From the NCBI RefSeq assembly GCF_051954495.1, contig NZ_JBQCHR010000082.1, positions 5,874 through 69,873 of the forward strand: a stretch of 64,000 nt of DNA. The letters are read 5' to 3'. This document shows, in pieces, positions 27,130 to 57,716 of this stretch (its first letter is position 1; every line of letters begins with the position of its first letter). Below the pieces are notes generated by a model that saw only the letters and a list, made by a program, of their open reading frames with translations, made no database searches and was not told the origin of the DNA. This stretch comes from Trinickia sp. GTDB lineage: Bacteria; Pseudomonadota; Gammaproteobacteria; Burkholderiales; Burkholderiaceae. The position numbers and the translations under genes were made by a program.

Positions 27130-29130
27130 TCACGCGGCATCCCGCTGTGTCCCTTCTATTTCCGTCACAACCTTCTTAGCACGTAGGATAGCCGCAGGGC
27201 TCATGCTCAATTCATCGACACCGAGCCGGATGAGCGTCGGTATCATCTCCGGCCGGGACGCAGCCTCACCGCAGACACCAACGCTGATCTTCGCGCGTCG
27301 CGCCGCATCGCATACGATACGGATCGCTTGAAGCACGGCGAGATGATCCGTCCGGTACAACGAAGCCAGACGAGAATTCATTCGATCGACGGCCATGATG
27401 TATTGCGTGAGATCGTTCGTGCCGATGGAGAAGAAATCGGCCTCTTTCGCCAAGAGGTCCGCCGTGAGCACGGCCGCCGGCGTCTCGATCATGATGCCCA
27501 ATTTCGGCTTGCCGTGAGCGACGCCTTGTTCCGTCAACTCGCGCGACAGGCGCGCCATGATCGCTTTCGTCCGGCGGACTTCTTCGATATCGTCCACCAT
27601 TGGAAGCATGACACTCAGGTTGCCATGCACCGCGGCTCGCAATAGCGCACGCAATTGCGGCTCAAAGATCTCGGGGCAGTCCAGGCACATGCGAATCCCT
27701 CGCCAGCCGAGAAAAGGGTTTTCTTCTTCGGGGAAGCGAACGCCGGGCAACGGTTTATCGGCACCCGCATCCAACGTGCGGATAATGACGGGCCACGGGG
27801 CGAATGCGCGGGCAAGCGTCGTATACACCTCACGCTGTTCCTCTTCCGACGGCACCCTGCGCTGATCCATGAACAGCAGTTCGGTGCGAAACAAGCCCAC
27901 ACCCATTGCCCCGGCAAGCTGAGCCGCCTCGATCTCGGCGAGCGACCCTAGGTTTGCCGCGACCTGTATTTTCTGACCCTCCTGCGTCCGCGGTTCAACA
28001 TCACGGTATGCGAGCAGGCTCGCTTGTACTTCGCGCTGCGCATCGAGCCGCCTAGACATCGCCTCCTCGAATTCGGGCGAATGATCGAGCCATAGTTCGC
28101 CGCTTCCACCATCGATCGCTATCCTCGCCGCCGAGCGCAGTATGTCGCGATCCGCCGCCACGCCGAGAATGGCCGGGATACCGTGCGCGCGCGCGATGAT
28201 TGCAACGTGAGATGTTGCGCTTCCCGACGTGCAGACAATACCGAGAATATTTCGCAAATCGGCGCGTGCGAGATCGGGCGCACAAAGTTCCTCGGCAAGG
28301 ACGATGCTAGGGCCCGGCAGTTCGCTGAGCGTGGGTAGCGGCTTGCCGAGCAGCGATGCAGCCACGGCCCGCGTCAGCCCGCGAATATCATCAGCGCGGC
28401 TGCGCAGGTACTCGTCGGGCAACGTCGCAAATGCCACCGCCAGATCGAGCCCGCACTTCAGCGTGGCGGCTTCGGCGCTCCACTGCGAAGACACCAGCGC
28501 GCGGATCGCACCGGCGAAATCATCGCTTCGCGCCACTTCGGCGATCGCCTCGAAGATCTCGTCATGCTCGGCAGCGTCACCGCGCGGCGCGAGCATTGCG
28601 CGCAACGTATCCTCGAGCGCCGCGCCGAAGCGGTGCAATTCGCCGGCTACCTCGTGTGGCGCGACGGATTGTCTATCGGCGACGATCTCCTCTCGGAAAT
28701 AGGCATACGCCTGTCCGAACGCCAAGCCTTCGCTCGCCGGAACGCCCTTGAACGAAAGACCCGCTGCATCGGTGGACAGCGCGCGGGCAGCGCCTGCGTT
28801 CGGCGTCGCACCCGGCTGTTCGACAGCAACAGCGGGAACGCCGCCCCCAGCATCGCCCGTAGCCGGCAATGAAATACTCGCATCGGCGAGAAAGTCCGCC
28901 AGCCGCCCCAGCGCCTCGCATTCGTCGTCGCCGTCCGCACGTAAGACGATCTGCTCGTTTTGCTTGATACCCAACAGCATGAGTTTCACCGCGCTTTTCG
29001 CGTCGGCCCACGCATCGCCTCGCCCGATCTGCAGCGAGCAAGTAAAACTCTTGGCGAGCTTGGCGAATTGCGTGGCGGGACGCGCGTGCAGTCCCTCATG
29101 TACTTTGACAACGACCGGTGTCTCCAGCAT
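27130..29130 (-). CDS. HPr-Enzyme I fusion PEP-protein phosphotransferase
   Basis: N-terminal EGLHARPA (HPr His), Ala/Gly linker, then EI motifs TSHVAI, GVGLFRTE and FSIGTNDLTQY. Confidence 0.92.
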   Translation of the reverse strand: MLETPVVVKVHEGLHARPATQFAKLAKSFTCSLQIGRGDAWADAKSAVKLMLLGIKQNEQIVLRADGDDECEALGRLADFLADASISLPATGDAGGGVPAVAVEQPGATPNAGAARALSTDAAGLSFKGVPASEGLAFGQAYAYFREEIVADRQSVAPHEVAGELHRFGAALEDTLRAMLAPRGDAAEHDEIFEAIAEVARSDDFAGAIRALVSSQWSAEAATLKCGLDLAVAFATLPDEYLRSRADDIRGLTRAVAASLLGKPLPTLSELPGPSIVLAEELCAPDLARADLRNILGIVCTSGSATSHVAIIARAHGIPAILGVAADRDILRSAARIAIDGGSGELWLDHSPEFEEAMSRRLDAQREVQASLLAYRDVEPRTQEGQKIQVAANLGSLAEIEAAQLAGAMGVGLFRTELLFMDQRRVPSEEEQREVYTTLARAFAPWPVIIRTLDAGADKPLPGVRFPEEENPFLGWRGIRMCLDCPEIFEPQLRALLRAAVHGNLSVMLPMVDDIEEVRRTKAIMARLSRELTEQGVAHGKPKLGIMIETPAAVLTADLLAKEADFFSIGTNDLTQYIMAVDRMNSRLASLYRTDHLAVLQAIRIVCDAARRAKISVGVCGEAASRPEMIPTLIRLGVDELSMSPAAILRAKKVVTEIEGTQRDAA

Positions 29131-29184
29131 GACGTACCCTTTCTAGGATTCGGCAAAACAATCGATTCAATCACTGCTCAGGTA

Positions 29185-29562
29185 TCAAGCGTCGACGATC
29201 TCAATGATCGTGCCGCTCTTCATCCCCTCGAACAGACTTGCGCAGTCGACTTCCGACACGCATATCTCGCCCGGACGATCCGCATTGCGCGAGCCGTTGA
29301 AATTCAGCACGACGTGGCCCAGTTCGCTGACTTTGTTCCATGCCGTCGGCCCCACCGCCGTCACGATCGCCGAGCCTCCGCCGATACGCAGAATGGCCCC
29401 GATCCGCGGCACGTCACGGCTCGCCTGCTCCACGCGGTGCAAGACGGAGACTTCAGCAAGCTCCGGCGGCGCACCGTCGGCGTACAGGATGAGTACGCCA
29501 CCCTCCAGCAAGGCTTGAACTTCTTCTCCGATCGACGAGATCACAGTCTTGTAGTAGTGCAT
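29185..29562 (-). CDS. srlB: PTS glucitol/sorbitol-family EIIA
   Basis: APPELAEVSVLH and ELGHVVLNFNG motifs. Confidence 0.85.
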   Translation of the reverse strand: MHYYKTVISSIGEEVQALLEGGVLILYADGAPPELAEVSVLHRVEQASRDVPRIGAILRIGGGSAIVTAVGPTAWNKVSELGHVVLNFNGSRNADRPGEICVSEVDCASLFEGMKSGTIIEIVDA

Positions 29563-29580
29563 AGTCGTTCCCGAAATGAA

Positions 29581-30585
29581 TCAAAGGGCGAAACTCGCAA
29601 CCCATGCGATGAGGACCGAGACCGGCCCCATGATTTGACGGCTGATGAGCACTGCGGGGACACCGATGCGGATCGTGTCCGGCTTCGCCTCTCCCAGCGC
29701 CATCCCTACTGGCACGAAATCGCAGCCGACTTGCGTGTCATAAGCGAACAAGGCCGGCAGCGCCATCTGCGGCGGCACGGTGCCGTTGCCGATGGCGGGC
29801 CCGATAATGGCGGCCCCGATGACTTGAGCGATCACGGCGCCCGGGCCTAGAACGGGAGAGAGGAAGGGCAGCCCGCAAATCGCCGACAGGATCACGAGCC
29901 CGATGATATTGCCGGCCAGCGGCGACAACACGTGGGCGAGCCCGACGCCAACCCCCGTCGAGTTGATGATACCGATCAGCATCGTGACGAACGCCATGAA
30001 CGGCAGGACGTTCCTGATCACGGTATCGATGGACTTTCGGCCGCTGTTGAACAGCACATTGACCACACCGCCCATCCCGCGCCCAATCGCAGTGATCCAA
30101 CCGACGATTCCGCCCGAATGCGCGGGATCCGCAGCGGCGACGGCCGCCGCGCCAGGCTCGGCAAAAGGCGCCGCCACGGCGGGGGAAACGGGTGCAGCCG
30201 CATCCTCGTCGATCGAATGAAGACTCGCGAGATCGACACCCGAGACATAGACGTCTTCGGTAATGAACTGCGCCAGCGGCCCGGACTGCCCAACGGGGCT
30301 GAGATTGACCGTCGGAATGCGCTTGCGCGGGTAAACGCCGCATCGTGCCGTGCCACCGCAATCGATGACCACAGCTGCAATTTCTGATTCGAGCGGCGGA
30401 TTGCGGAAACCGTCGACCACGACACCGCCCGTCATTTCCGCAAGCCGCGTGGCCACCTTCGGGATGTCGCCGCCGGTCACGGCCACGATTTTGTTGCGCT
30501 CCAGCGTCGGCGTAATGGTGAGCGGGCCGCCCCAACCGTTCGGTCCCTTCTCGATCCGTACGGCGCGATAGGTACGTGTATCCAT
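29581..30585 (-). CDS. srlE: PTS glucitol/sorbitol-family EIIBC
   Basis: [41 protein letters not shown] and [10 protein letters not shown] motifs. Confidence 0.9.
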
Positions 30586-30619
30586 GTCTTCCTCCAGTGC
30601 CTTTTGTGTTTGGTGGTGA

Positions 30620-31174
30620 TCAGAGCTTGATCCCTTCGCGCTTCGCGATCATCCGAGTAATCCCTTCGGTCACGATGCCCTTCAACAGGTTCACCACCAA
30701 GCCGACACCGAGGTAAAACAGTGCAAGCTTCGGAAGAGAGAATGGAGCGGCGTGATTCTCGGCGAGTTTAGTAATGCCTGCCGCCACCCCGAGCCACACG
30801 AACAGCTCTCCAGGATTGCAGTGCGGAAAGAGTCCTGTAATAGGATGGCAAAGCGATACAGCCGAGTCATAAAAGGCCGGTTTGTGCTTTTCTTCGAGGA
30901 AAACGCCGAAGGTATAAGCCATTGGGTTGGTCAGGAAGAACATCGCCAGCAACGGCAACAGCGTATAGCGCGTGATCACGTTCTTTGAGAAGAAGCGCGC
31001 GAGACCTTGAATGCGTTGCTCGCCGACAAGTGCGATGATGGTATAAACAGCCGTCAACAGCACGATCAATGTCGGCAAAATTCCGGTCACGAAACCGACG
31101 AAGGTTTTACCACCCGCATTGAATACACCGATAAACGCCTCGGCGGCGTGAGTCAGAAAATCCAAAGGATTCAT
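30620..31174 (-). CDS. srlA: PTS glucitol/sorbitol-family EIIC
   Basis: [15 protein letters not shown] and [16 protein letters not shown] motifs. Confidence 0.9.
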
Positions 31175-31262
31175 GCTGTTCTCCTGATATGGAACACCGT
31201 ACTTAATGAGTTATTGTGTAATTACCGAACGAAAACCAACACGGAAAAGCTAAAAATCTGGA

Positions 31263-31679
31263 TTAAGACGCCTTCGACAACGACGGCTCCCGACGTTCGT
31301 CTGCCGTCCGGCATGCCACTTCAAACGCTTTTCCCAGTGCCTGCTTGACGCTCATGGGAAGCGCAGAGACATCGACACGCTCATTGAACTCCGCGGCCCC
31401 CACACGCAAATCATCGAGCGCCTTGAAACGCGCAAAAACGGAGAGGCCAGACATGCTGAGCACCTTGCGCACTCGCGCCTCGTTGTCGATCACGATAATC
31501 GCAATGGCGCCCCGTCCCAGCCTGGCTTTGAATGAGCTCGCCCCGAGATATCCACTGTTCCACTCTGCCGCCGTTCTTCGAACGACGCTGCGGTAGTGGC
31601 GCACCTGCACCCACGAAGCGATGACCTGCAAGGCCCACATCAATGCAAGCAGCAACAAACCAAGTCGGACGAGTTCCAT
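31263..31679 (-). CDS. gutM: GutM-family activator
   Basis: LQVIASWVQVRHY and MSGLSVFARFK motifs; sits upstream of srlAEB. Confidence 0.75.
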   Translation of the reverse strand: MELVRLGLLLLALMWALQVIASWVQVRHYRSVVRRTAAEWNSGYLGASSFKARLGRGAIAIIVIDNEARVRKVLSMSGLSVFARFKALDDLRVGAAEFNERVDVSALPMSVKQALGKAFEVACRTADERREPSLSKAS

Positions 31680-31818
31680 TGCCTATCTCCTTGCCGTCTC
31701 GGCCGCTGGCCGGACTCGGCGGGGGCCGGGCTCGCACCCGGCTGTTGAGCGTTGGGTCTACTTATTAATGCAAATATCGATGAGGATGTATCGGGGAAGA
31801 CGCGCAATGCACGCGCCG

Positions 31819-33117
31819 CTAACGTCTCGTCTGCTCGCCGATCACGCGTGCCACGTCATCGGCCGCCTCGATTTGCGGAAGGTGTCCGACGCCCGCGAAT
31901 CGATGTTGCGCAACCGTACGCGGAAGGCGATCGGCGTGCGCGATCGGCAAGATTCGATCGGCTGCGCCCCAAACCGCACGGACCGGCATTCGCAAGTCCG
32001 ACAACAGCGGGGCGAGATCGACCTGCAGCCGGCCGTCGCGGAAAAAGGCCGTAGCCATGCGCTCGAGTGTCTGCCTCCTGCCGGGGCGGCCAAGCTGCTG
32101 CTCCGCCGTGGTAACGAACCCCTCATCGATGAACGATGCGTCTTGCACGAGTTCCTCCAGCCATGGCCTTAGCGTTGCACGATCGGTTGCTTTCGTCAGG
32201 CCGTTCATGAATGCCCAATTGCAACTTTCCCCGATGCCGGCCGGTGCGATCAAGGTAAGAGACCGCACCGCGAGCCGCGAAGACGCGGCGAGTTGCGACG
32301 CCACCGCACCACCAAACGAGTGACCGACAAGGTGCGCCGGCTCGGCATATTCTTCCCGCAACACGGCTTCGATTGCTTCCGCAATCGAACGCAGCGAAAG
32401 CGCGTCGCAGTCGGGCGATTTTCCATGCCCGGGCAAATCGATGGCAAGCACGCCGATATCGGCAAGCACCCCGGCCTCGCGCATCGCGTGCACGAGTGGC
32501 CGCCAACTGTTCAATTCGGCCGCAAAACCGTGGACCAAGACGATCGTAGCCGCATTTCCCTCATGCAGCCATAGGCGATTGAGGCGTAGGGACGATTCCA
32601 CCACCGCGGGCACTTGCCGCAAAAACGACAGCACGTCGTTCTTGACAATGCGCCCGTGCGGGCCGGAGCCGCTGACTTCCGCCAGTTCGATATGGCTTTC
32701 GCGCGCGACCTTGCGTGCAGCGGGGCTCGCCCGCGTTCCCGTCCGCGCTTCGGCCGCACAGGCCGCTGCCAGCTCGCGCGCAACCGGTGCGGCAGGCGAC
32801 TCCGCAATCGTCGACGAAAGCTCAGGCGCTTGCGCCGCTGCGGCTTGCACCGCCTCTTCCGGCTCCTGCACCGCCTCGCCGCTCGCATAGATCCAAGCGA
32901 TAACGGTGCCGACCGGCACAGTGTCTCCGACGCTCGCGGAAACCTTGCGCACGATGCCGGACGCGGGCGACTCCACTTCCATCGTCGCCTTGCTGGTCTC
33001 GATGTCGAACAGCGGCTCGCCCTCTTTCACCGAATCGCCTTCGCGCGCATACCACGCCGTAATCGAGCCCTCCGTCATATCCATATCGACGCGCGGAAGA
33101 ATGACCTCGGTCGGCAT
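31819..33117 (-). CDS. AcoC-like protein: lipoyl domain, subunit-binding domain and alpha/beta hydrolase
   Basis: ETSKATMEVE lipoyl-Lys motif, ASPAARKVA...GSGPHGRI binding domain, GHSFGG nucleophile and GHLPQIE. Confidence 0.85.
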   Translation of the reverse strand: MPTEVILPRVDMDMTEGSITAWYAREGDSVKEGEPLFDIETSKATMEVESPASGIVRKVSASVGDTVPVGTVIAWIYASGEAVQEPEEAVQAAAAQAPELSSTIAESPAAPVARELAAACAAEARTGTRASPAARKVARESHIELAEVSGSGPHGRIVKNDVLSFLRQVPAVVESSLRLNRLWLHEGNAATIVLVHGFAAELNSWRPLVHAMREAGVLADIGVLAIDLPGHGKSPDCDALSLRSIAEAIEAVLREEYAEPAHLVGHSFGGAVASQLAASSRLAVRSLTLIAPAGIGESCNWAFMNGLTKATDRATLRPWLEELVQDASFIDEGFVTTAEQQLGRPGRRQTLERMATAFFRDGRLQVDLAPLLSDLRMPVRAVWGAADRILPIAHADRLPRTVAQHRFAGVGHLPQIEAADDVARVIGEQTRR

Positions 33118-33118
33118 G

Positions 33119-34126
33119 TCAGATCCTCCCGCCGACGAGCCGCCGCGCCGCATCCACGATATCGGCAACTTGCGGCACCGCAGCCCTTTCGAGCTGCGGG
33201 TTGTAGGGAAGCGGACAGTCCGCGCCGCCAAGCCGGACGATCGGCGCATCGAGTGCGTCGAATGCCTCGCCCTCGCTCACGATCGCCGCGACTTCCGAAC
33301 CGATGCCCAGTTGCTGCACGCCCTCATACACGCAGATCAGCCGCGATGTTTTCCGCACGCTATCGATGATCGCCTGACGATCGATGGGACGGATACTGCG
33401 CAGATCGACGACTTCGACGTCGATCCCGTCCTGCGCCAGCGCCTCCGCGGCTTCGAGCGCCCGCACGCTCATGATCGATGTTGCGACGATTGTCACGTCC
33501 GTCCCTAGCCGCCGAACCACGGCCTTCCCGAGCGGTTCGACGTAGTAGCCCTCCGGGACGACGCCCTTGCTCTTGTACAGCAGCTTATGCTCGAAAATCA
33601 TCACCGGATCGGGATCGTCGAGCGCGGCGAGCAGCATCCCCTTCGCGTCGTGCGGTGTGCTGGGTTGAACGACCTTGAGGCCCGGCACATGCGCAAACCA
33701 CGCTTCGAGGCTCTGGCTGTGTTGCGCCGCGGCACCCGTCCCCGAGCCCGCGGGGAAACGCATGACGACCGGCACAGAGACACCGCCGCCCAACATGTAT
33801 CGCATCTTCGCGGCCTGATTGACGATTTGCTCCATCGCCAGCGTGGCGAAATCCGAGAACTGAAATTCATAGACGGGCCGCGAGCCGGTCATGGCGGCAC
33901 CCACCGCAATGCCCGCGCCGGCAAGCTCGGCAATCGGCGTATCCATCACGCGCTCTGGGCCAAAACGCTCGAAAAGCCCCCCCGTCACCTGAAACGCACC
34001 ACCGTATACGCCGATATCCTCGCCCATCAGAAAGACACGATCGTCACGTTCAAGCGCAATCGCAAGCGCTTCGTTGATCGCCTGCGCGTACGTCAGTTCG
34101 CGCGGCTGGCTCATTGCCGTAGTCAT
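33119..34126 (-). CDS. TPP-dependent dehydrogenase E1 beta (AcoB/PdhB-like)
   Basis: GEDIG.YGGAF, DTPIAE, QHSQS and DPVMIFEHK motifs. Confidence 0.9.
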
Positions 34127-35160
34127 TGCAGTATTCCTTGTGGCGTCGGTTCCAGTGCACCGGTATAGACATCGCGCGTGAGTTCGTCGATGTGGGGCGA
34201 AGGACTTTCTTGTGCGAATTCAAGGCCGGCCTTGATCTCGTCCTCGACGCTCGCCCGCATGGCTTGCACCGCGGCGGCATCGACCACCCCCCATTCGAGC
34301 AATTGCTTTTCCAAATGCGTGATCGGATCGCGCCCCCCCCACGATTCGATTTCTTCGCGCGTGCGATAGCGGTTGCGGTCGCTTTTCGAATGACCGCGAA
34401 TGCGATAAGTCTCACACTCGATCAGCGTCGGCCCGCCGCCCCGCGCTCGCGAAATGGCTTCGTCGGCCGCTTGCAGCACATCGCTCAAGCGGTTGCCGTC
34501 GATGGTCACACCGGGCATGTCGTACGACGCCGCGCGTTGCGATACGTGGCTCACCGCCGTGGAGCGCTCGACCGACATCGACATCCCATATCGATTGTTT
34601 TCGCAGACGAAGATGACGGGCAGATTCCAGATCGCCGCGAAGTTCAGCGACTCGTGGAAGGCGCCTTCATTGTTCGCGCCGTCCCCGAAAAAACACACCA
34701 CGACCGAATTGCGGCCCTGCTTCTTGATCGAAAGCCCGGCGCCCACCGCAATCGGAAGTCCGCCGCCCACGATGCCGTTGGCGCCGAGGTTCCCGCGGCT
34801 GACGTCGGCGATATGCATCGAACCGCCGCGGCCATGGCAATAACCCGTTTCCTTGCCGAAGAACTCGGCGAACATCCGCTTCGGATCCGCGCCTTTACCG
34901 ATGCAATGGCCGTGGCCACGATGCGTGGACGTGATGTAGTCGTCGTCGTTCAGCAGCATCGTCATGCCGATCGCCGACGCTTCTTGTCCGATCGACAAGT
35001 GCATCGTGCCGTGAATGAGCCCGCGCATGTAAGCCTGCTCCGCGCTCTCCTCGAAGCGACGCACGAGGATCATCTTTCGGAGCGCATCGCGCAACGCTGC
35101 CTCCGGAACGCTCCGGAATATGGCGGGCATGCCGTCGACCTTGTCTTCAACGTATCCCAT
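34123..35160 (-). CDS. TPP-dependent dehydrogenase E1 alpha (AcoA/PdhA-like)
   Basis: [19 protein letters not shown]...ENN TPP motif and YRIRGHS. Confidence 0.9.
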
Positions 35161-35170
35161 GAATCGCTCC

Positions 35171-36502
35171 TTATGCGGCGGCGCGACGCGCGCCGAGTAC
35201 CACCTCGTCCTGCAACTGACGCAGACGCACGATGGCCGAATTCGGATCGACAGCGCAGTTTTGCCGCGTGAGAAGCTCGCCTTTTTTTATCGGCTGCTTG
35301 ACCGTGCCGCCTTCGAGCAATCCGCACGGAACCGCGTCCTCCGCCAGGGCATCGTCGGCGCCCAGGGCCCACGCGCGATAGGTGTATTCGCCGATCGCAT
35401 CGAGGTGTTCGCCGGGTTTGAGATCGCGTTTCGCCACGGCACACACTTCCACGACGGGTACCGGTAGCGGCCGCATGTCGGATTTGCCATAGAGTGCCGC
35501 GCGCGCGCAACTGAGCGGCACCTCGAGACTCGTCAGGTGATAGGGACGATAGAAGGTGTAGTACGGTCCCTTGCCGAGCTTGAGATCGTGCATGCGCTCA
35601 CGTAGCCGCGGGTGCGCCAGTTCGGCCACGACGAACACGCCCGGCGCCACGCCCTTGCCGATCGTATAGTCGACCACCCCTTTGCGGCTAAGAATGCCGC
35701 CATCCGCAACGGGGCATAGCACGTCGTGAAGTTGGTCCAGCGTGGCCGACGGGCCATGCATGCCCGGAACGTCCGGCACGAGCCCCGTCGCATTGCCGAT
35801 GGCGGCCATTTCCACCGCCGTCTTCGAACCGTCGACGAATTCCACGAGCATGCGAGGGTTCATATTGCGAGCTTTCGCTTCCGCGGCGTAGTCGTCGGGC
35901 GTCGCATCGACGTTCAGCGGATTGTTCTTCCCTTTGCCGGCAGCGACGATCGGATAACCTAGTGCGCTGACGAAATCGATCAGCTCGATAGTCGAACTCG
36001 GCTCATCGCCCGCGCCGAGCGTGTACACGACACCGAGGCGTTCGGCCTCGCGGCGCAGGTAGGCGCCGATCGTCACATCCGCCTCGACGTTCATCATGAC
36101 GAGATGCTTGCCATGCTCCATCGCGAGCAGGCCGATTTGCGCGCCCACGGCCGGCTTGCCGGTGGCATCGATGACGACATCGATCTGGTCATGCGTGCAA
36201 ATCGAAGCCGCGTCCTGAGTAATGGCGATGGCGCCCGACTCGATCGCCTTCGAGATGCCGCTACCGCTATCGACCACCCGATAACCCTCATCGGCCTGAC
36301 GGGCCACGCGCACCGCGTCGCATGCCGCATCGAGGCGCAGATCCGCGATCGCACCGATCTCGAGTCCTTGCATGTGTTGCACCTGCGTGACGATGTCCGT
36401 CCCCATTTCGCCGGAGCCAATCAAGCCGATCCGGACGGGCTTGCCCGCTTCCGCGCGAGCCTGCAGAGAGGCGGCAAGGCCGCTTGGGATGATATTCAAC
36501 AT
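35171..36502 (-). CDS. Homoserine-dehydrogenase-like NAD(P) oxidoreductase with C-terminal SAF domain
   Basis: GLIGSGEMG Rossmann motif, MMNVEADVTIG, AGKGKNNP and C-terminal AVAKRDLKPGEHLD; RBS CAGGAG upstream. Confidence 0.8.
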   Translation of the reverse strand: MLNIIPSGLAASLQARAEAGKPVRIGLIGSGEMGTDIVTQVQHMQGLEIGAIADLRLDAACDAVRVARQADEGYRVVDSGSGISKAIESGAIAITQDAASICTHDQIDVVIDATGKPAVGAQIGLLAMEHGKHLVMMNVEADVTIGAYLRREAERLGVVYTLGAGDEPSSTIELIDFVSALGYPIVAAGKGKNNPLNVDATPDDYAAEAKARNMNPRMLVEFVDGSKTAVEMAAIGNATGLVPDVPGMHGPSATLDQLHDVLCPVADGGILSRKGVVDYTIGKGVAPGVFVVAELAHPRLRERMHDLKLGKGPYYTFYRPYHLTSLEVPLSCARAALYGKSDMRPLPVPVVEVCAVAKRDLKPGEHLDAIGEYTYRAWALGADDALAEDAVPCGLLEGGTVKQPIKKGELLTRQNCAVDPNSAIVRLRQLQDEVVLGARRAAA

Positions 36503-36608
36503 CAGCAAAATCTCCTGAAAATTAGGGCCCATGCAGGCGCCGAACCGAGCTTCGACCGAGGAGGCGGCACGGGATCTTCAGCGCGCTCCGCCATGTCGGC
36601 TTCCGAGT

Positions 36609-36656
36609 TGTTGAGTGTACATTTGTCTTTTATACTAGTGATATGTTCACTCAACA
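36609..36656. promoter_or_regulatory. Inverted-repeat operator overlapping a putative promoter of the PTS/aco operon
   Basis: TGTTGAGTGTACAT-N20-ATGTTCACTCAACA (13/14 match); minus-strand TTGCTG-N17-TAGTAT overlaps it. Confidence 0.55.
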
Positions 36657-36792
36657 GCAAGCGCCAACACGACGAAAAAGTCGTTTCTCAGGGTAAGTTC
36701 GGATGGGTAGGGAAATGCGAGGAAGCGCGGGAAGGACGTCGCGCGCCGCCGAGAGGGGCGGCGCGGCGGGATATGACCGGTTCGGATTGGGC

Positions 36793-37767
36793 CTAGTTCA
36801 GCAGCTCGGCCGCCGCATATTGATCGGTGATCAGCGTGGTGGGGGCAAAGAGCCTGATCGATGCGCGAAGCGCGCGCACCTTCGTCATGCCGCCCGCAGC
36901 GAGGATTCGCTGCGGCACCTCTTTAACGATGGGCAACGGCACGGACATGACGCGGCCGTTGATGGGGTGATCGACGATGCCACCTTCCGCGTCGAGGAAG
37001 TTGAACAGCAGATCCCCGATCGCGCCGGCGGCAATCAACGACTCGCGATCGCTGTCCGAAATGAATTGCGAGCGATAGGCCGTCGCATCCTTACCCATTC
37101 CGGCCGCCCCGAGCACCACCGCGTCGAGCGTGCGCGCCATGTCGAAGACATCGCGCAGCCCGCAGCGTTCGATCAATGTCGTGCGCGTCTCCGGGCTGTC
37201 TACCACGATCGGCGCGGTCATCAGATGGCAGTCGGCTTGATAAAGCGCGGCGAAACGCCATGCGAATTCGGCGGGGTTGAATGCGCGTGCTTTCATGATG
37301 CCGCCGAGCAACGACACCACCGAGACATTTTCCACCGGCTTTTCGCTCATGTACGCGAGTGCATTCACGAGTGTGCGGCCCCAGCCCACACCGATGCGCA
37401 TGTCGGAACGTACGAGATCGGACAAATAGGCTCCCGCAGCGGCGCTGACGGGCCCCGTGGCATCCGCGTCGGGCGAGGACAAAGGCGCGACGATCGCCTC
37501 ACCCAAACCGAACCGTTGCTCGAGCCTGCGCTCGAGCTCCACGCACTCGGCCAGCCGATCCTGAATAACGATTCTGACTTCGTTGCGCTCGCGTGCTTGC
37601 GCGAGCATGCGCACGACGGTGACGCGCCCGACACCCAGGCGTTGCGCGATTTCCTGCTGCGTCATCTCTTCGACGTAATACATCCAGGAAGCGCGCAAAC
37701 GCAGCCGCTGGGCCGGACTTCGATCGTCGGCATCGTCTTGGCGCAGCTTGTTCGTCGCTTTCGGCAC
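36793..37767 (-). CDS. SorC/DeoR-type sugar-binding transcriptional regulator
   Basis: ASWMYYVEEMTQQEIAQRLG HTH, IGVGWGRTL and GAIGD motifs. Confidence 0.88.
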   Translation of the reverse strand: MPKATNKLRQDDADDRSPAQRLRLRASWMYYVEEMTQQEIAQRLGVGRVTVVRMLAQARERNEVRIVIQDRLAECVELERRLEQRFGLGEAIVAPLSSPDADATGPVSAAAGAYLSDLVRSDMRIGVGWGRTLVNALAYMSEKPVENVSVVSLLGGIMKARAFNPAEFAWRFAALYQADCHLMTAPIVVDSPETRTTLIERCGLRDVFDMARTLDAVVLGAAGMGKDATAYRSQFISDSDRESLIAAGAIGDLLFNFLDAEGGIVDHPINGRVMSVPLPIVKEVPQRILAAGGMTKVRALRASIRLFAPTTLITDQYAAAELLN

Positions 37768-39402: not shown

Positions 39403-40941
39403 CTAAACCGATAGATTGAACGTGGAAACGGCCGCGTGCAGAGTATCCGCCTGCCTTTCGAGCGAATGCGTGACGACGGCCGTTTGTTCGACCATCGCCG
39501 CATTCCGCTGTGTTGCTTCATCCATCAACGCAACGGCACGACTCACTTCGGCGATACTCTGGCTTTGGTCGCCGCAAGCCGACGCAATCGCGGTGACTAA
39601 GACAGCGACCCGCTCGATCGCTTGCATCGCACCGTCCACAGAGCGGTTAACTTCCGTCGCTTGTCCCGCACTGTCACGAATGACCTGTACAGACGAATCG
39701 ATCAGACCGCTGATTTCTTTGGCGGCGGCCGCGCACCGCTGCGCCAGGGCTCTCACTTCGCCCGCCACGACAGCGAAGCCACGCCCTTGCTCGCCCGCTC
39801 GCGCCGCCTCCACTGCGGCATTGAGTGCCAGGATATTCGTCTGGAACGCAATGGCTTCGATGATGTCAGTGATCTCGGAGATCTTGCCTGCCCGCTCGCC
39901 CACGCGTTCGATGGTGCCGACCAGCCTCTGCGTCGCCTCATCGCCTGCGCGGGCAAGGCCCGACGCCTCGTTGGCCAAGCGGTTGGCCTGGAGCGCGTCA
40001 TCGGCATTGCGCTTCACAGTATCCGACAGTTGCGCCATGGCAGCCGCGGTTCGTTCGAGCGATGCCGCTTGCTGCTGCGTTCGTGCCGTTAGATCCGTCT
40101 GGCCCGAGACAATTTCGGCCGTCGCCGTCCGCATATCTTGCGCCGCTTGCTGTATCAAGCCGATCTCGCGTTCGATTCGCGTCAGCAATACGTTGAACGC
40201 CCCAGCCGTTCGCCCGATCTCGTCCGCTCGCTCGTCCGACGCTCGCAGGCTTAAGTCGAGCGAACGGCTCACATCATCGAGGGTTGTTTCGATCGCACCA
40301 AGGCCGCCGTTCAACGAACGCATCTGCCGCCACACGCCGGCGCCCAGGAAACCGCCACCGATACCGAGAGTGGCGATCATCACGATCAGCAGAAGGTGCG
40401 CCGCGTTCGCACCGGTGTCGCGGGCCTGACGAGACTCGGCTGTGAGGCGTTGAATAAGTTCACCAATGTCTTGTCCTTCTGACATCCCCGGTGGCCGAAG
40501 CCGCTGCTGTACGGTCATGAGCGCTGCCGCGCCATCGCCATTTCTTACCTGATCAATGGCTGCCGTCATGGCGCTCATCGCCGCCGATCGGTCCTGGGTG
40601 AACCGATCGGCCGCCGCCATCGCATCCTCGTGTTTCTCAGCGCCACTGAATAGTTGCGCTTGCTCATCGGAGGCGTGTTGCATGAGCACGGCGAAGTCGG
40701 CGCTTTTCTGACGTGCAACCGGATCAACGTTCGATATGGCTTCCATCAGCGCGAGCGCAGCCAACAGCTGGAAGCGATACGTCTCCTCCAAATACTGGAT
40801 GGAAAGCGTGATCGTTCGATAGTTATCCTCAGCGCGCCGCTCGGATGCCGACACGCCCCATATACCCATCGCCGCGGCGATCGCACACAGCAATCCCAAG
40901 CCAGCGAAAAGCAGGGCAATCCGAGTTCTCAAGTCTTTCAT
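39403..40941 (-). CDS. Methyl-accepting chemotaxis protein
   Basis: Two TM segments, HAMP (DEIGRTAGAFN) and IAFQTNILALNAAVEAARAGEQGRGFAVVA signalling hairpin. Confidence 0.95.
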   Translation of the reverse strand: MKDLRTRIALLFAGLGLLCAIAAAMGIWGVSASERRAEDNYRTITLSIQYLEETYRFQLLAALALMEAISNVDPVARQKSADFAVLMQHASDEQAQLFSGAEKHEDAMAAADRFTQDRSAAMSAMTAAIDQVRNGDGAAALMTVQQRLRPPGMSEGQDIGELIQRLTAESRQARDTGANAAHLLLIVMIATLGIGGGFLGAGVWRQMRSLNGGLGAIETTLDDVSRSLDLSLRASDERADEIGRTAGAFNVLLTRIEREIGLIQQAAQDMRTATAEIVSGQTDLTARTQQQAASLERTAAAMAQLSDTVKRNADDALQANRLANEASGLARAGDEATQRLVGTIERVGERAGKISEITDIIEAIAFQTNILALNAAVEAARAGEQGRGFAVVAGEVRALAQRCAAAAKEISGLIDSSVQVIRDSAGQATEVNRSVDGAMQAIERVAVLVTAIASACGDQSQSIAEVSRAVALMDEATQRNAAMVEQTAVVTHSLERQADTLHAAVSTFNLSV

Positions 40942-57693: not shown

Positions 57694-57716
57694 TTCGAGT
57701 CCTCTCCTGGGCACCA
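57694..57716 (+). repeat. att core, copy 2 (island end), followed by a terminator-like hairpin at 57722-57747
   Basis: Exact 23-bp match to 26873-26895. Confidence 0.9.

Follow-up and report, generated by a model that had tools for sequence, protein, structure and literature searches.

Which compound does a bacterium take up through a glucitol-family phosphotransferase system (PTS) whose genes run on into those of an oxidoreductase and a thiamine pyrophosphate (TPP)-dependent dehydrogenase complex? The question is raised by a gene cluster of Trinickia sp. (contig NZ_JBQCHR010000082.1) that lies in a 64,000-nt stretch of DNA, called the window here. Open reading frame (ORF) calls together with Pfam and NCBIfam searches place ten co-directional genes on its minus strand (27130–37767), from a SorC regulator through to a fusion of HPr and enzyme I (HPr-EI). 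An initial annotation had listed these genes, remarked that SrlD was missing, and sketched an undescribed route in which a polyol is imported and phosphorylated, oxidised to a ketol-phosphate and cleaved with TPP, whereupon an acyl group is released. All of the listed genes are present on the minus strand at the coordinates collected in Table 1, no short-chain dehydrogenase gene lies inside the cluster, each step of the generic route has a matching gene, and no paper describing such a pathway was found in the literature searched. The same annotation took the oxidoreductase for a SAF enzyme of unknown function; this part has to be revised, as 64% identity and 24 of 24 signature residues place it in a characterised family, the type II reductoisomerases of DXP (1-deoxy-D-xylulose 5-phosphate), or DXR-II. 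We are highly confident that the cluster is a coherent catabolic unit built on DXR-II and a dedicated subfamily of the dehydrogenase component E1. With moderate confidence we propose that its substrate is 2-C-methyl-D-erythritol (ME), which would be imported and phosphorylated to MEP (2-C-methyl-D-erythritol 4-phosphate), oxidised to DXP, and cleaved to acetyl-coenzyme A (acetyl-CoA) and glyceraldehyde 3-phosphate (GAP).

Signature residues assign the oxidoreductase to DXR-II

Compared with the Brucella abortus enzyme DRL (PDB 3UPY, 3UPL), the oxidoreductase gave an E-value of 4e-185 and 64% identity over 433 aligned residues. Carretero-Paulet et al. (2013) listed positions that tell DXR-II apart from DLO1 and DLO2, two related families whose function is unknown (PMC3847144). 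When signature positions from that residue list were checked against Brucella DRL, all 24 were identical, including those that anchor fosmidomycin or the substrate (K191, K193 and T229) and, in the dimer, E174, F178, R320 and Y322. H250, G121 and V351, which also separate DXR-II from DLO proteins, are among the 24. Across 301 Burkholderiales genomes the matches to the window protein are bimodal, with 3 genomes at 60–100% identity and about 92 at 31–42%, the latter DLO-like. In a tree built from 92 sequences, DXR-II and the DLO outgroup part with 100% SH-aLRT support, and the window protein falls into a clade of seven Burkholderiaceae sequences with 99% support; the polarity of E1-linked versus standalone DXR-II is not settled by this tree, which has a basal polytomy and a long outgroup branch.

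By these features the enzyme is assigned to an experimentally characterised family, the type II DXP reductoisomerases (DXR-II/DRL), and by family membership it would most likely interconvert DXP and MEP. It shares with Brucella DRL both the clade and the three-domain architecture (NAD_binding_3, DRL_cat and a SAF-like C-terminus). Unlike the Brucella enzyme, it is redundant with a type I reductoisomerase (DXR-I) and lies inside a regulated operon for uptake and breakdown; it also has Asp at the position that discriminates NAD from NADP, where Brucella DRL has Ala-Arg-Arg, and its proposed physiological direction is from MEP to DXP.

DXR-II is linked to a dedicated E1 subfamily across families and orders

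We compared 80 loci carrying the closest DXR-II relatives of the query and 10 loci from genome samples, of which 87 in total were usable. In 65 of the 87, DXR-II is followed directly by the genes for E1 alpha and E1 beta. These loci span Burkholderiaceae, Comamonadaceae, Sphaerotilaceae and many Hyphomicrobiales, the last including Brucella (ex-Ochrobactrum), Mesorhizobium, Phyllobacterium, Ensifer and Aestuariivirga. Among 401 genomes sampled from the phylum, nine E1 alpha matches fell at 64–68% identity and all others at no more than 48%; each of the nine at 64% or above is found downstream of a DXR-II gene and no more than 60 bp from it, and in this sample the subfamily is found only beside DXR-II (9/9). 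The PTS behaves likewise. Glucitol-type EIIBC occurs in 9 of 201 genomes of the family, and 8 of the 9 have DXR-II 5–7 kb off on the same contig; the ninth match (G837:C2:332326-332877) contains an in-frame TAG, sits in a genome without DXR-II and may be a decaying remnant. Another Burkholderiales family holds the genes in an altered order (locus L090: GutM, EIIC, EIIBC, EIIA, HPr-EI, HAD, DXR-II, E1 alpha, E1 beta, AcoC). The grouping of the cluster genes is thus far beyond chance, and these frequencies bear out two earlier suggestions, that the PTS and the aco-like genes are one unit and that this type of PTS is uncommon in Burkholderiaceae.

The constant core of the sister loci consists of DXR-II, both E1 subunits and an E2, as a rule with SorC, a regulator present in 30 of them and with both types of transporter. 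Uptake and phosphorylation come in two forms: 22 loci have a glucitol-family PTS, and 20 have an ATP-binding cassette (ABC) importer (binding protein, two permeases and MalK-type ATPase) together with a PfkB-family kinase. The PTS-type loci keep the HPr-EI fusion in the same position and the GutM gene ahead of the EII genes. The E2 is also exchanged, being AcoC-type in 15 loci and a canonical acyltransferase with lipoyl, E3-binding and 2-oxoacid_dh domains in 33. A dihydrolipoamide dehydrogenase (E3) gene is added in four loci; an extra gene for a Zn-dependent alcohol dehydrogenase or for a HAD phosphatase occurs in some. Because swaps of transporter and of E2 fit a pathway that imports a neutral compound, phosphorylates it, converts the product with DXR-II and cleaves it oxidatively, we favour a pathway of this kind.

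Four loci of the Brucella/Ochrobactrum type (L027, L036, L074 and L079) have two extra conserved genes directly upstream of DXR-II, besides a glucitol-type PTS nearby. By eye, these look like genes for a galactitol-type PTS EIIC (about 481 aa, polytopic) and an EIIB (about 101 aa).

Residues that set the linked E1 apart

E1 beta is separated in the same manner as E1 alpha, with 71–89% identity in DXR-II-linked loci versus 41–53% to non-linked sequences. We compared 64–65 DXR-II-linked E1 sequences with 14 non-linked ones, and counted a position as subfamily-specific if it was conserved in at least 95% of the linked set and present in at most one non-linked sequence. This gave 10 positions in E1 alpha, among them R46, H50, T52 and R262, and 23 in E1 beta. 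The invariant T52 stands where non-linked sequences have Phe or Leu aligned with alpha-F61 of human pyruvate dehydrogenase E1; R262, likewise invariant, lies five residues past the catalytic His, H257, aligned with human alpha-H263. In E1 beta, Q89 takes the place of the Met aligned with human beta-M81; Glu67 is aligned with human beta-Glu59, and His136 with beta-His128. A new Arg, together with a polar residue of smaller size, would suit a larger substrate that is anionic or phosphorylated.

E1 alpha/beta does not come out as orthologous to the acetoin-cleaving AcoA and AcoB: the E1 alpha forms a group of its own (64–68% identity), whereas probable true aco loci with AcoC-type E2 partners are at 45–48%; loci without DXR-II in which an E1 alpha of 45–48% identity accompanies an AcoC-type E2 look like ordinary acetoin operons. 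The complex resembles acetoin dehydrogenase (AcoA/AcoB/AcoC, with or without AcoL) in its heterotetramer-type E1 alpha/beta and in an E2 with lipoyl, E3-binding and alpha/beta-hydrolase domains, and in the chemistry we propose, too, a methyl acyloin would be cleaved with the help of TPP, the transfer to lipoamide being oxidative. It differs in that E1 alpha belongs to a separate subfamily, at most 48% identical to probable true acoA products and with invariant, presumably near-active-site residues of its own, in that the cluster lacks E3, and in that the proposed substrate is the phosphorylated DXP, not acetoin. There is a likeness to the DXP synthase DXS as well, a TPP enzyme of the same superfamily whose carboligation would be reversed in the proposed E1 step; DXS, however, is a single chain that decarboxylates pyruvate, whereas the window E1 has two subunits and would hand a two-carbon unit to lipoamide, and the true DXS of the genome is encoded elsewhere (contig C148).

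In the E2 translation the lipoyl lysine lies within ETSKAT and the nucleophile motif is GHSFG. The name lipoyl-hydrolase that it first received is imprecise: the protein is an established AcoC-type E2, scoring above the cut-off of NF011457. Genes for handing on an acyl group are present, and transfer to CoA is likelier than hydrolytic release, because a canonical E2 acyltransferase replaces the AcoC-type protein in sister loci. Three lpd genes are found elsewhere in the genome and none in the cluster, and the search of the genome yielded no second, acetoin-type cluster having an AcoC-type E2. Apart from the window pair, the genome has a single E1 alpha/beta pair (G000:C189:11824-14937; 29% and 44% identity), with a canonical E2-like match next after it; this pair is probably a branched-chain or pyruvate-type complex.

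The linked DXR-II duplicates DXR-I and carries an NAD-type fingerprint

Since the genome also holds a canonical DXR-I (contig C110) and DXS, the window DXR-II is not needed for isoprenoid synthesis. The 401-genome sample contains 15 genomes with DXR-II. Every sampled genome that was checked and has an E1-linked DXR-II also has either DXR-I or a second, standalone DXR-II, and five sampled genomes with standalone DXR-II alone have no DXR-I. Based on this pattern of co-occurrence with DXR-I, we take the E1-linked copy to be an add-on and the standalone copy to be the housekeeping enzyme.

Seven Mesorhizobium-like genomes of one genus (G361, G380, G392, G412, G475, G548 and G668) contain two DXR-II copies and no DXR-I; the standalone copy is 64–66% identical to the query and the copy ahead of E1 alpha 68–70%. 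In the three whose standalone copies were read (G392, G412 and G548), the cofactor motif is Thr-Arg-Arg. The most divergent DXR-II, at 54% identity, is found at locus L094 (G439:C2), where a SorC-type regulator adjoins it and E1 genes are absent, in a genome lacking DXR-I; the mixed context does not sit well with either class.

The cofactor residue was scored at the end of strand beta-2, 20 residues past GxGxxG. All of the E1-linked enzymes (65/65) have Asp or Glu at this site, D64 in the window protein, followed by Leu or Ile, and this combination matches the classical NAD-preferring pattern, which would apply to the linked enzymes as a group. Standalone DXR-II enzymes in genomes without DXR-I have Thr-Arg-Arg or Thr-Arg-Thr, an NADP-type pattern. 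The NADP-type motif looks derived, because the DLO outgroups also carry an acidic residue.

A proposed route for methylerythritol

From gene content, protein families, linkage and the redundancy with DXR-I, we infer the substrate, the direction in which DXR-II works, the substrate of E1 and the effector of SorC as follows. Because the SAF enzyme is a DXR-II, a family that interconverts MEP and DXP, the ketol-phosphate is most likely DXP and the imported polyol ME. DXP is a methyl acyloin (CH3-CO-CHOH-R), like acetoin, which is why we propose it as the compound that E1 cleaves. ME would then be the simplest substrate that needs every gene, since DXR-II interconverts MEP and DXP and an Aco-type E1 could cleave DXP. 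In the first step, the HPr-EI fusion and EIIA, EIIBC and EIIC would import ME and phosphorylate a primary hydroxyl to give MEP. DXR-II, acting in reverse, would oxidise MEP to DXP with formation of reduced cofactor. TPP on E1 alpha/beta would attack the C2 carbonyl of DXP, GAP being released and hydroxyethyl-TPP retained. The AcoC-type E2 would take up the two-carbon unit oxidatively on its lipoyl arm and hand it to CoA, giving acetyl-CoA. Re-oxidation of the arm would fall to a housekeeping E3 whose gene lies at another place in the genome, so that E1, E2 and E3 together would yield acetyl-CoA, GAP and NADH. SorC, probably bound to an inverted repeat that overlaps the promoter, would let go in response to a phosphate of the pathway. 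There is a precedent for a glucitol PTS that carries ME: judging by the title of a 2004 paper of Testa, Cornish and Poulter (J Bacteriol 186:473), the sorbitol PTS of Salmonella reportedly transports ME.

Several points weigh against this proposal. The DXR equilibrium favours MEP, and reverse flux would need pull from the cleavage step. Cleavage of DXP by an Aco-type E1 was not found reported in the literature searched, and the cluster holds no E3. The sites of T52, R262 and Q89 are taken to line the active site by comparison with the human pyruvate dehydrogenase E1. The cofactor argument is partial, as position 64 is also acidic in 16 of 21 standalone DXR-II enzymes. The set of 80 sister loci consists of the query's nearest relatives and is not a random sample. 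Two conserved orphan proteins encoded beside the cluster, c6 and c21 (described below), have no role in the scheme. As a whole, the proposal rests on sequence and linkage.

Alternative substrates and alternative functions

The substrate might instead be 1-deoxy-D-xylulose. The PTS, or the importer and kinase, would make DXP, E1 and E2 would burn it, and DXR-II would divert part of it to MEP as salvage. The same gene set is compatible with this, and the proven direction of DXR-II is from DXP to MEP (PMC3847144). DXR-II would, however, be dispensable for such a catabolism, although no other partner is as tightly linked to E1 and its gene usually stands first; moreover, the genome already has DXR-I for the conversion of DXP to MEP, and the E1-linked enzymes have the NAD-type acidic residue, not the NADPH-type Thr/Ala-Arg-Arg of the biosynthetic copies. 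We consider this substrate unlikely.

We give a similarly low probability to a different polyol, or a branched sugar alcohol such as a methyltetrol isomer, on whose phosphate E1 and a paralogue of DXR-II would act. Specificity is unreadable from sequence alone, and this reading could draw on an EIIA that scores under the glucitol equivalog cut-offs, on the Zn-dependent alcohol dehydrogenase or HAD phosphatase of some sister loci, and on the two orphan proteins, for which the ME scheme has no role. Against it, all 24 DXR-II signature residues, the substrate anchors included, are as in the Brucella enzyme, and E1-linked and biosynthetic copies interleave in one tight clade at 54–70% identity.

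Far less probable is a biosynthetic module in which E1 alpha/beta would play the part of DXS and form DXP out of pyruvate and GAP, with DXR-II continuing to MEP as a second entry into the MEP pathway. Pyruvate dehydrogenase E1 is related to DXS, and E. coli aceE mutants are reported to be able to supply DXP (PMC3424233). A lipoyl E2 with an E3-binding domain is nonetheless always attached, which speaks for oxidative transfer and not carboligation, the module is accompanied by transporters, a kinase and a sugar-phosphate-type repressor, and both DXS and DXR-I are already in the genome.

Chance adjacency of an ordinary sorbitol PTS, with srlD elsewhere, and an ordinary acoABC acetoin operon is hardly credible: NCBIfam does name SrlA and SrlE glucitol/sorbitol subunits and the E2 an acetoin dehydrogenase E2, and the genome has no other AcoC-type cluster, but the E1 alpha subfamily was never seen away from DXR-II (9/9) and is at most 48% identical to probable true acoA products with AcoC-type E2 partners, 8 of the 9 glucitol-type PTS loci in the family stand beside DXR-II, and the same genes recur in different order in another Burkholderiales family (L090).

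Returning to catabolism of ME, we also entertain a wider reading, held tentatively and in our view slightly more apt to be wrong than right. DXR-II would be primarily catabolic, the first dedicated step of a widespread pathway that burns ME by running the two opening reactions of the MEP pathway in reverse. The ancestral form would be the E1-linked one of NAD type; Brucella, Bartonella and Mesorhizobium would later have recruited the enzyme as an alternative biosynthetic DXR, which switched to the NADPH-type motif after loss of DXR-I, and c6 and c21/c17 would be families of new fold taking part in the pathway.

Organisation of the cluster and its surroundings

Genes were called with a codon-position GC filter, the DNA being GC-rich, and the features are listed in Table 1. 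The true start of DXR-II is probably at 36502, giving 443 aa, as judged from homologues of 443 aa and a GGAGA sequence that would serve as ribosome-binding site. That of the AcoC-type E2 is probably at 33117, giving about 432 aa with the N-terminus MPTEVILPR. From DXR-II through E1 alpha and E1 beta to E2 the intergenic gaps are 10, -4 and 1 nt; wider gaps of 139 nt and 88 nt precede GutM and EIIC. By its domains the HPr-EI fusion would provide the cluster with general PTS phosphoryl carriers of its own, and the EIIBC gene is the sole copy in the genome. The PTS genes resemble those of the enterobacterial srlAEBD-gutM-srlR-gutQ operon, with homologues of SrlA, SrlE and SrlB and a GutM, SrlA and SrlE scoring above their NCBIfam equivalog cut-offs. 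The cluster differs from that operon in having no srlD, srlR or gutQ, in its own HPr-EI fusion and SorC-type regulator, and in the joining of the PTS to DXR-II and an E1/E2 complex; no SrlD or other short-chain dehydrogenase, SrlR or GutQ was found among the ORFs of 26.9–39.4 kb. An Rfam search of the cluster gave no riboswitch or leader, the sole match above gathering score being the flanking tRNA. The operon likely ends at a hairpin beyond the HPr-EI gene (26902–26936).

Table 1. Features of the window in and around the cluster.
Feature	Position	Strand	Evidence and remarks
tRNA-Leu(CAG) gene	26809-26895		235 bp from cluster end
Hairpin, 15-bp stem, A and T runs on both sides	26902..26936		terminator scan; between tRNA-Leu and end of HPr-EI gene
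HPr-EI fusion, 666 aa	27130..29130	-	Pfam PTS-HPr 3-82, PEP-utilisers_N, PEP-utilizers, PEP-utilizers_C; TIGR01417 443 bits vs cut-off 341.7
Glucitol-family EIIA (SrlB-like), 125 aa	29185..29562	-	PF03829 PTSIIA_gutA, E 8e-28; under NCBIfam equivalog cut-offs
Glucitol-family EIIBC (SrlE-like), 334 aa	29581..30585	-	PF03612 and PF07663; NF049924 438 bits vs cut-off 400
Glucitol-family EIIC (SrlA-like), 184 aa	30620..31174	-	PF03608 EII-GUT, E 1e-72; NF049923 223 bits vs cut-off 150
GutM-like protein, 138 aa	31263..31679	-	PF06923 GutM, E 8e-17
AcoC-type E2 (lipoyl, E3-binding, alpha/beta-hydrolase)	31819..33117 (probable start; ORF 31819-33249)	-	PF00364, PF02817, PF00561; NF011457 371.8 bits vs cut-off 307
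TPP-dependent dehydrogenase E1 beta, 335 aa	33119..34126	-	PF02779, PF02780
TPP-dependent dehydrogenase E1 alpha, 345 aa	34123..35160	-	PF00676, E 1e-86
DXR-II oxidoreductase, by sequence (NAD_binding_3, DRL_cat, SAF)	35171..36502 (probable start; ORF to 36532)	-	PF21135 DRL_cat 228 bits, PF03447, PF08666
Candidate operator, inverted repeat TTGAGTGAACAT-N20-ATGTACACTCAA	36611..36654	-	upstream of DXR-II, overlaps TATAAA
SorC/DeoR-type regulator, 324 aa	36793..37767	-	PF04198 Sugar-bind, E 2e-54, and N-terminal helix-turn-helix, residues 21-65
Orphan protein c21, 282 aa	37851..38699	+	divergent from sorC
Orphan protein c6, 206 aa	38696..39316	+	start overlaps c21 stop by 4 nt

The gap between sorC and DXR-II measures 290 nt and contains a near-perfect inverted repeat, TTGAGTGAACAT-N20-ATGTACACTCAA, around a TATAAA element. 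Perfect copies of its half-sites are limited to these two in the 64-kb window. A block, GTGAACAT...CTA.TATAAAA.ACAAATGTGCA, is kept upstream of DXR-II in four Burkholderia/Paraburkholderia loci. We regard the inverted repeat, which overlaps the promoter, as a candidate operator for SorC.

Of the two orphan proteins, c6 is present in 26 of 81 loci, beside PTS-type and ABC-type clusters alike, and its relatives are without exception named 'hypothetical'. c21 aligns end to end with c17, a protein of the ABC-transporter operons in sister loci, with an invariant Glu-His-Arg motif. By hhalign, c17 and c21 are weakly related and c6 is unrelated to both. Searches of the three against Pfam and NCBIfam, relaxed thresholds included, gave no credible match. 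AlphaFold2 models of c6 and c21 are all-helical (pLDDT 86.6 and 70.8), and Foldseek found no match to them in the PDB at E < 1. Convergent with c6, the minus strand at 39403–40941 encodes a methyl-accepting chemotaxis protein whose sensor domain is of the TarH/4HB type; this gene is not kept beside the cluster in sister loci.

The last 23 bases of the tRNA-Leu(CAG) gene recur as an exact repeat at 57694–57716, and a degenerate copy lies near 63468–63519. Because of the exact repeat, we suggest that the cluster sits on an old island of about 30.8 kb together with a cluster for aromatic-compound catabolism, the tRNA repeats having served as att sites. No integrase gene was found on the contig. 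The PTS is present in 2 of 16 sampled genomes of the genus, its own genome counted. The left flank (tpsB and tRNA-Leu) is kept in the genus, but in no sampled genome does the right flank adjoin the left as an empty site.

Implications

The 2013 study of the DXR-II family did not analyse gene neighbourhoods (PMC3847144), and a full-text literature search turned up no paper on ME catabolism or on the genomic context of DXR-II. What is new here comprises the NAD-type fingerprint of the E1-linked enzymes, the residues of the E1 subfamily, the conserved operator, the two orphan partners, a PTS-type member from Burkholderiaceae and the linkage statistics. According to a 2026 review, the distribution of Dxr-II has yet to show a defining pattern (PMC13001223); the pathway, if true, would explain the scatter of DXR-II among bacteria that already hold DXR-I, which the review left open.

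If the proposal holds, ME would be a new carbon source for bacterial metabolism, burned by a new pathway. Free methylerythritol has sources in plants, algae and microbes, and 2-methyltetrols are also formed by isoprene oxidation. The pathway would be the first physiological case in which the entry steps of the MEP pathway are reversed, and a phosphorylated acyloin would be a new class of substrate for complexes of the acetoin-dehydrogenase type. It would also supply annotation rules for genes that are now called 'homoserine dehydrogenase', 'acetoin dehydrogenase' and 'sorbitol PTS'.

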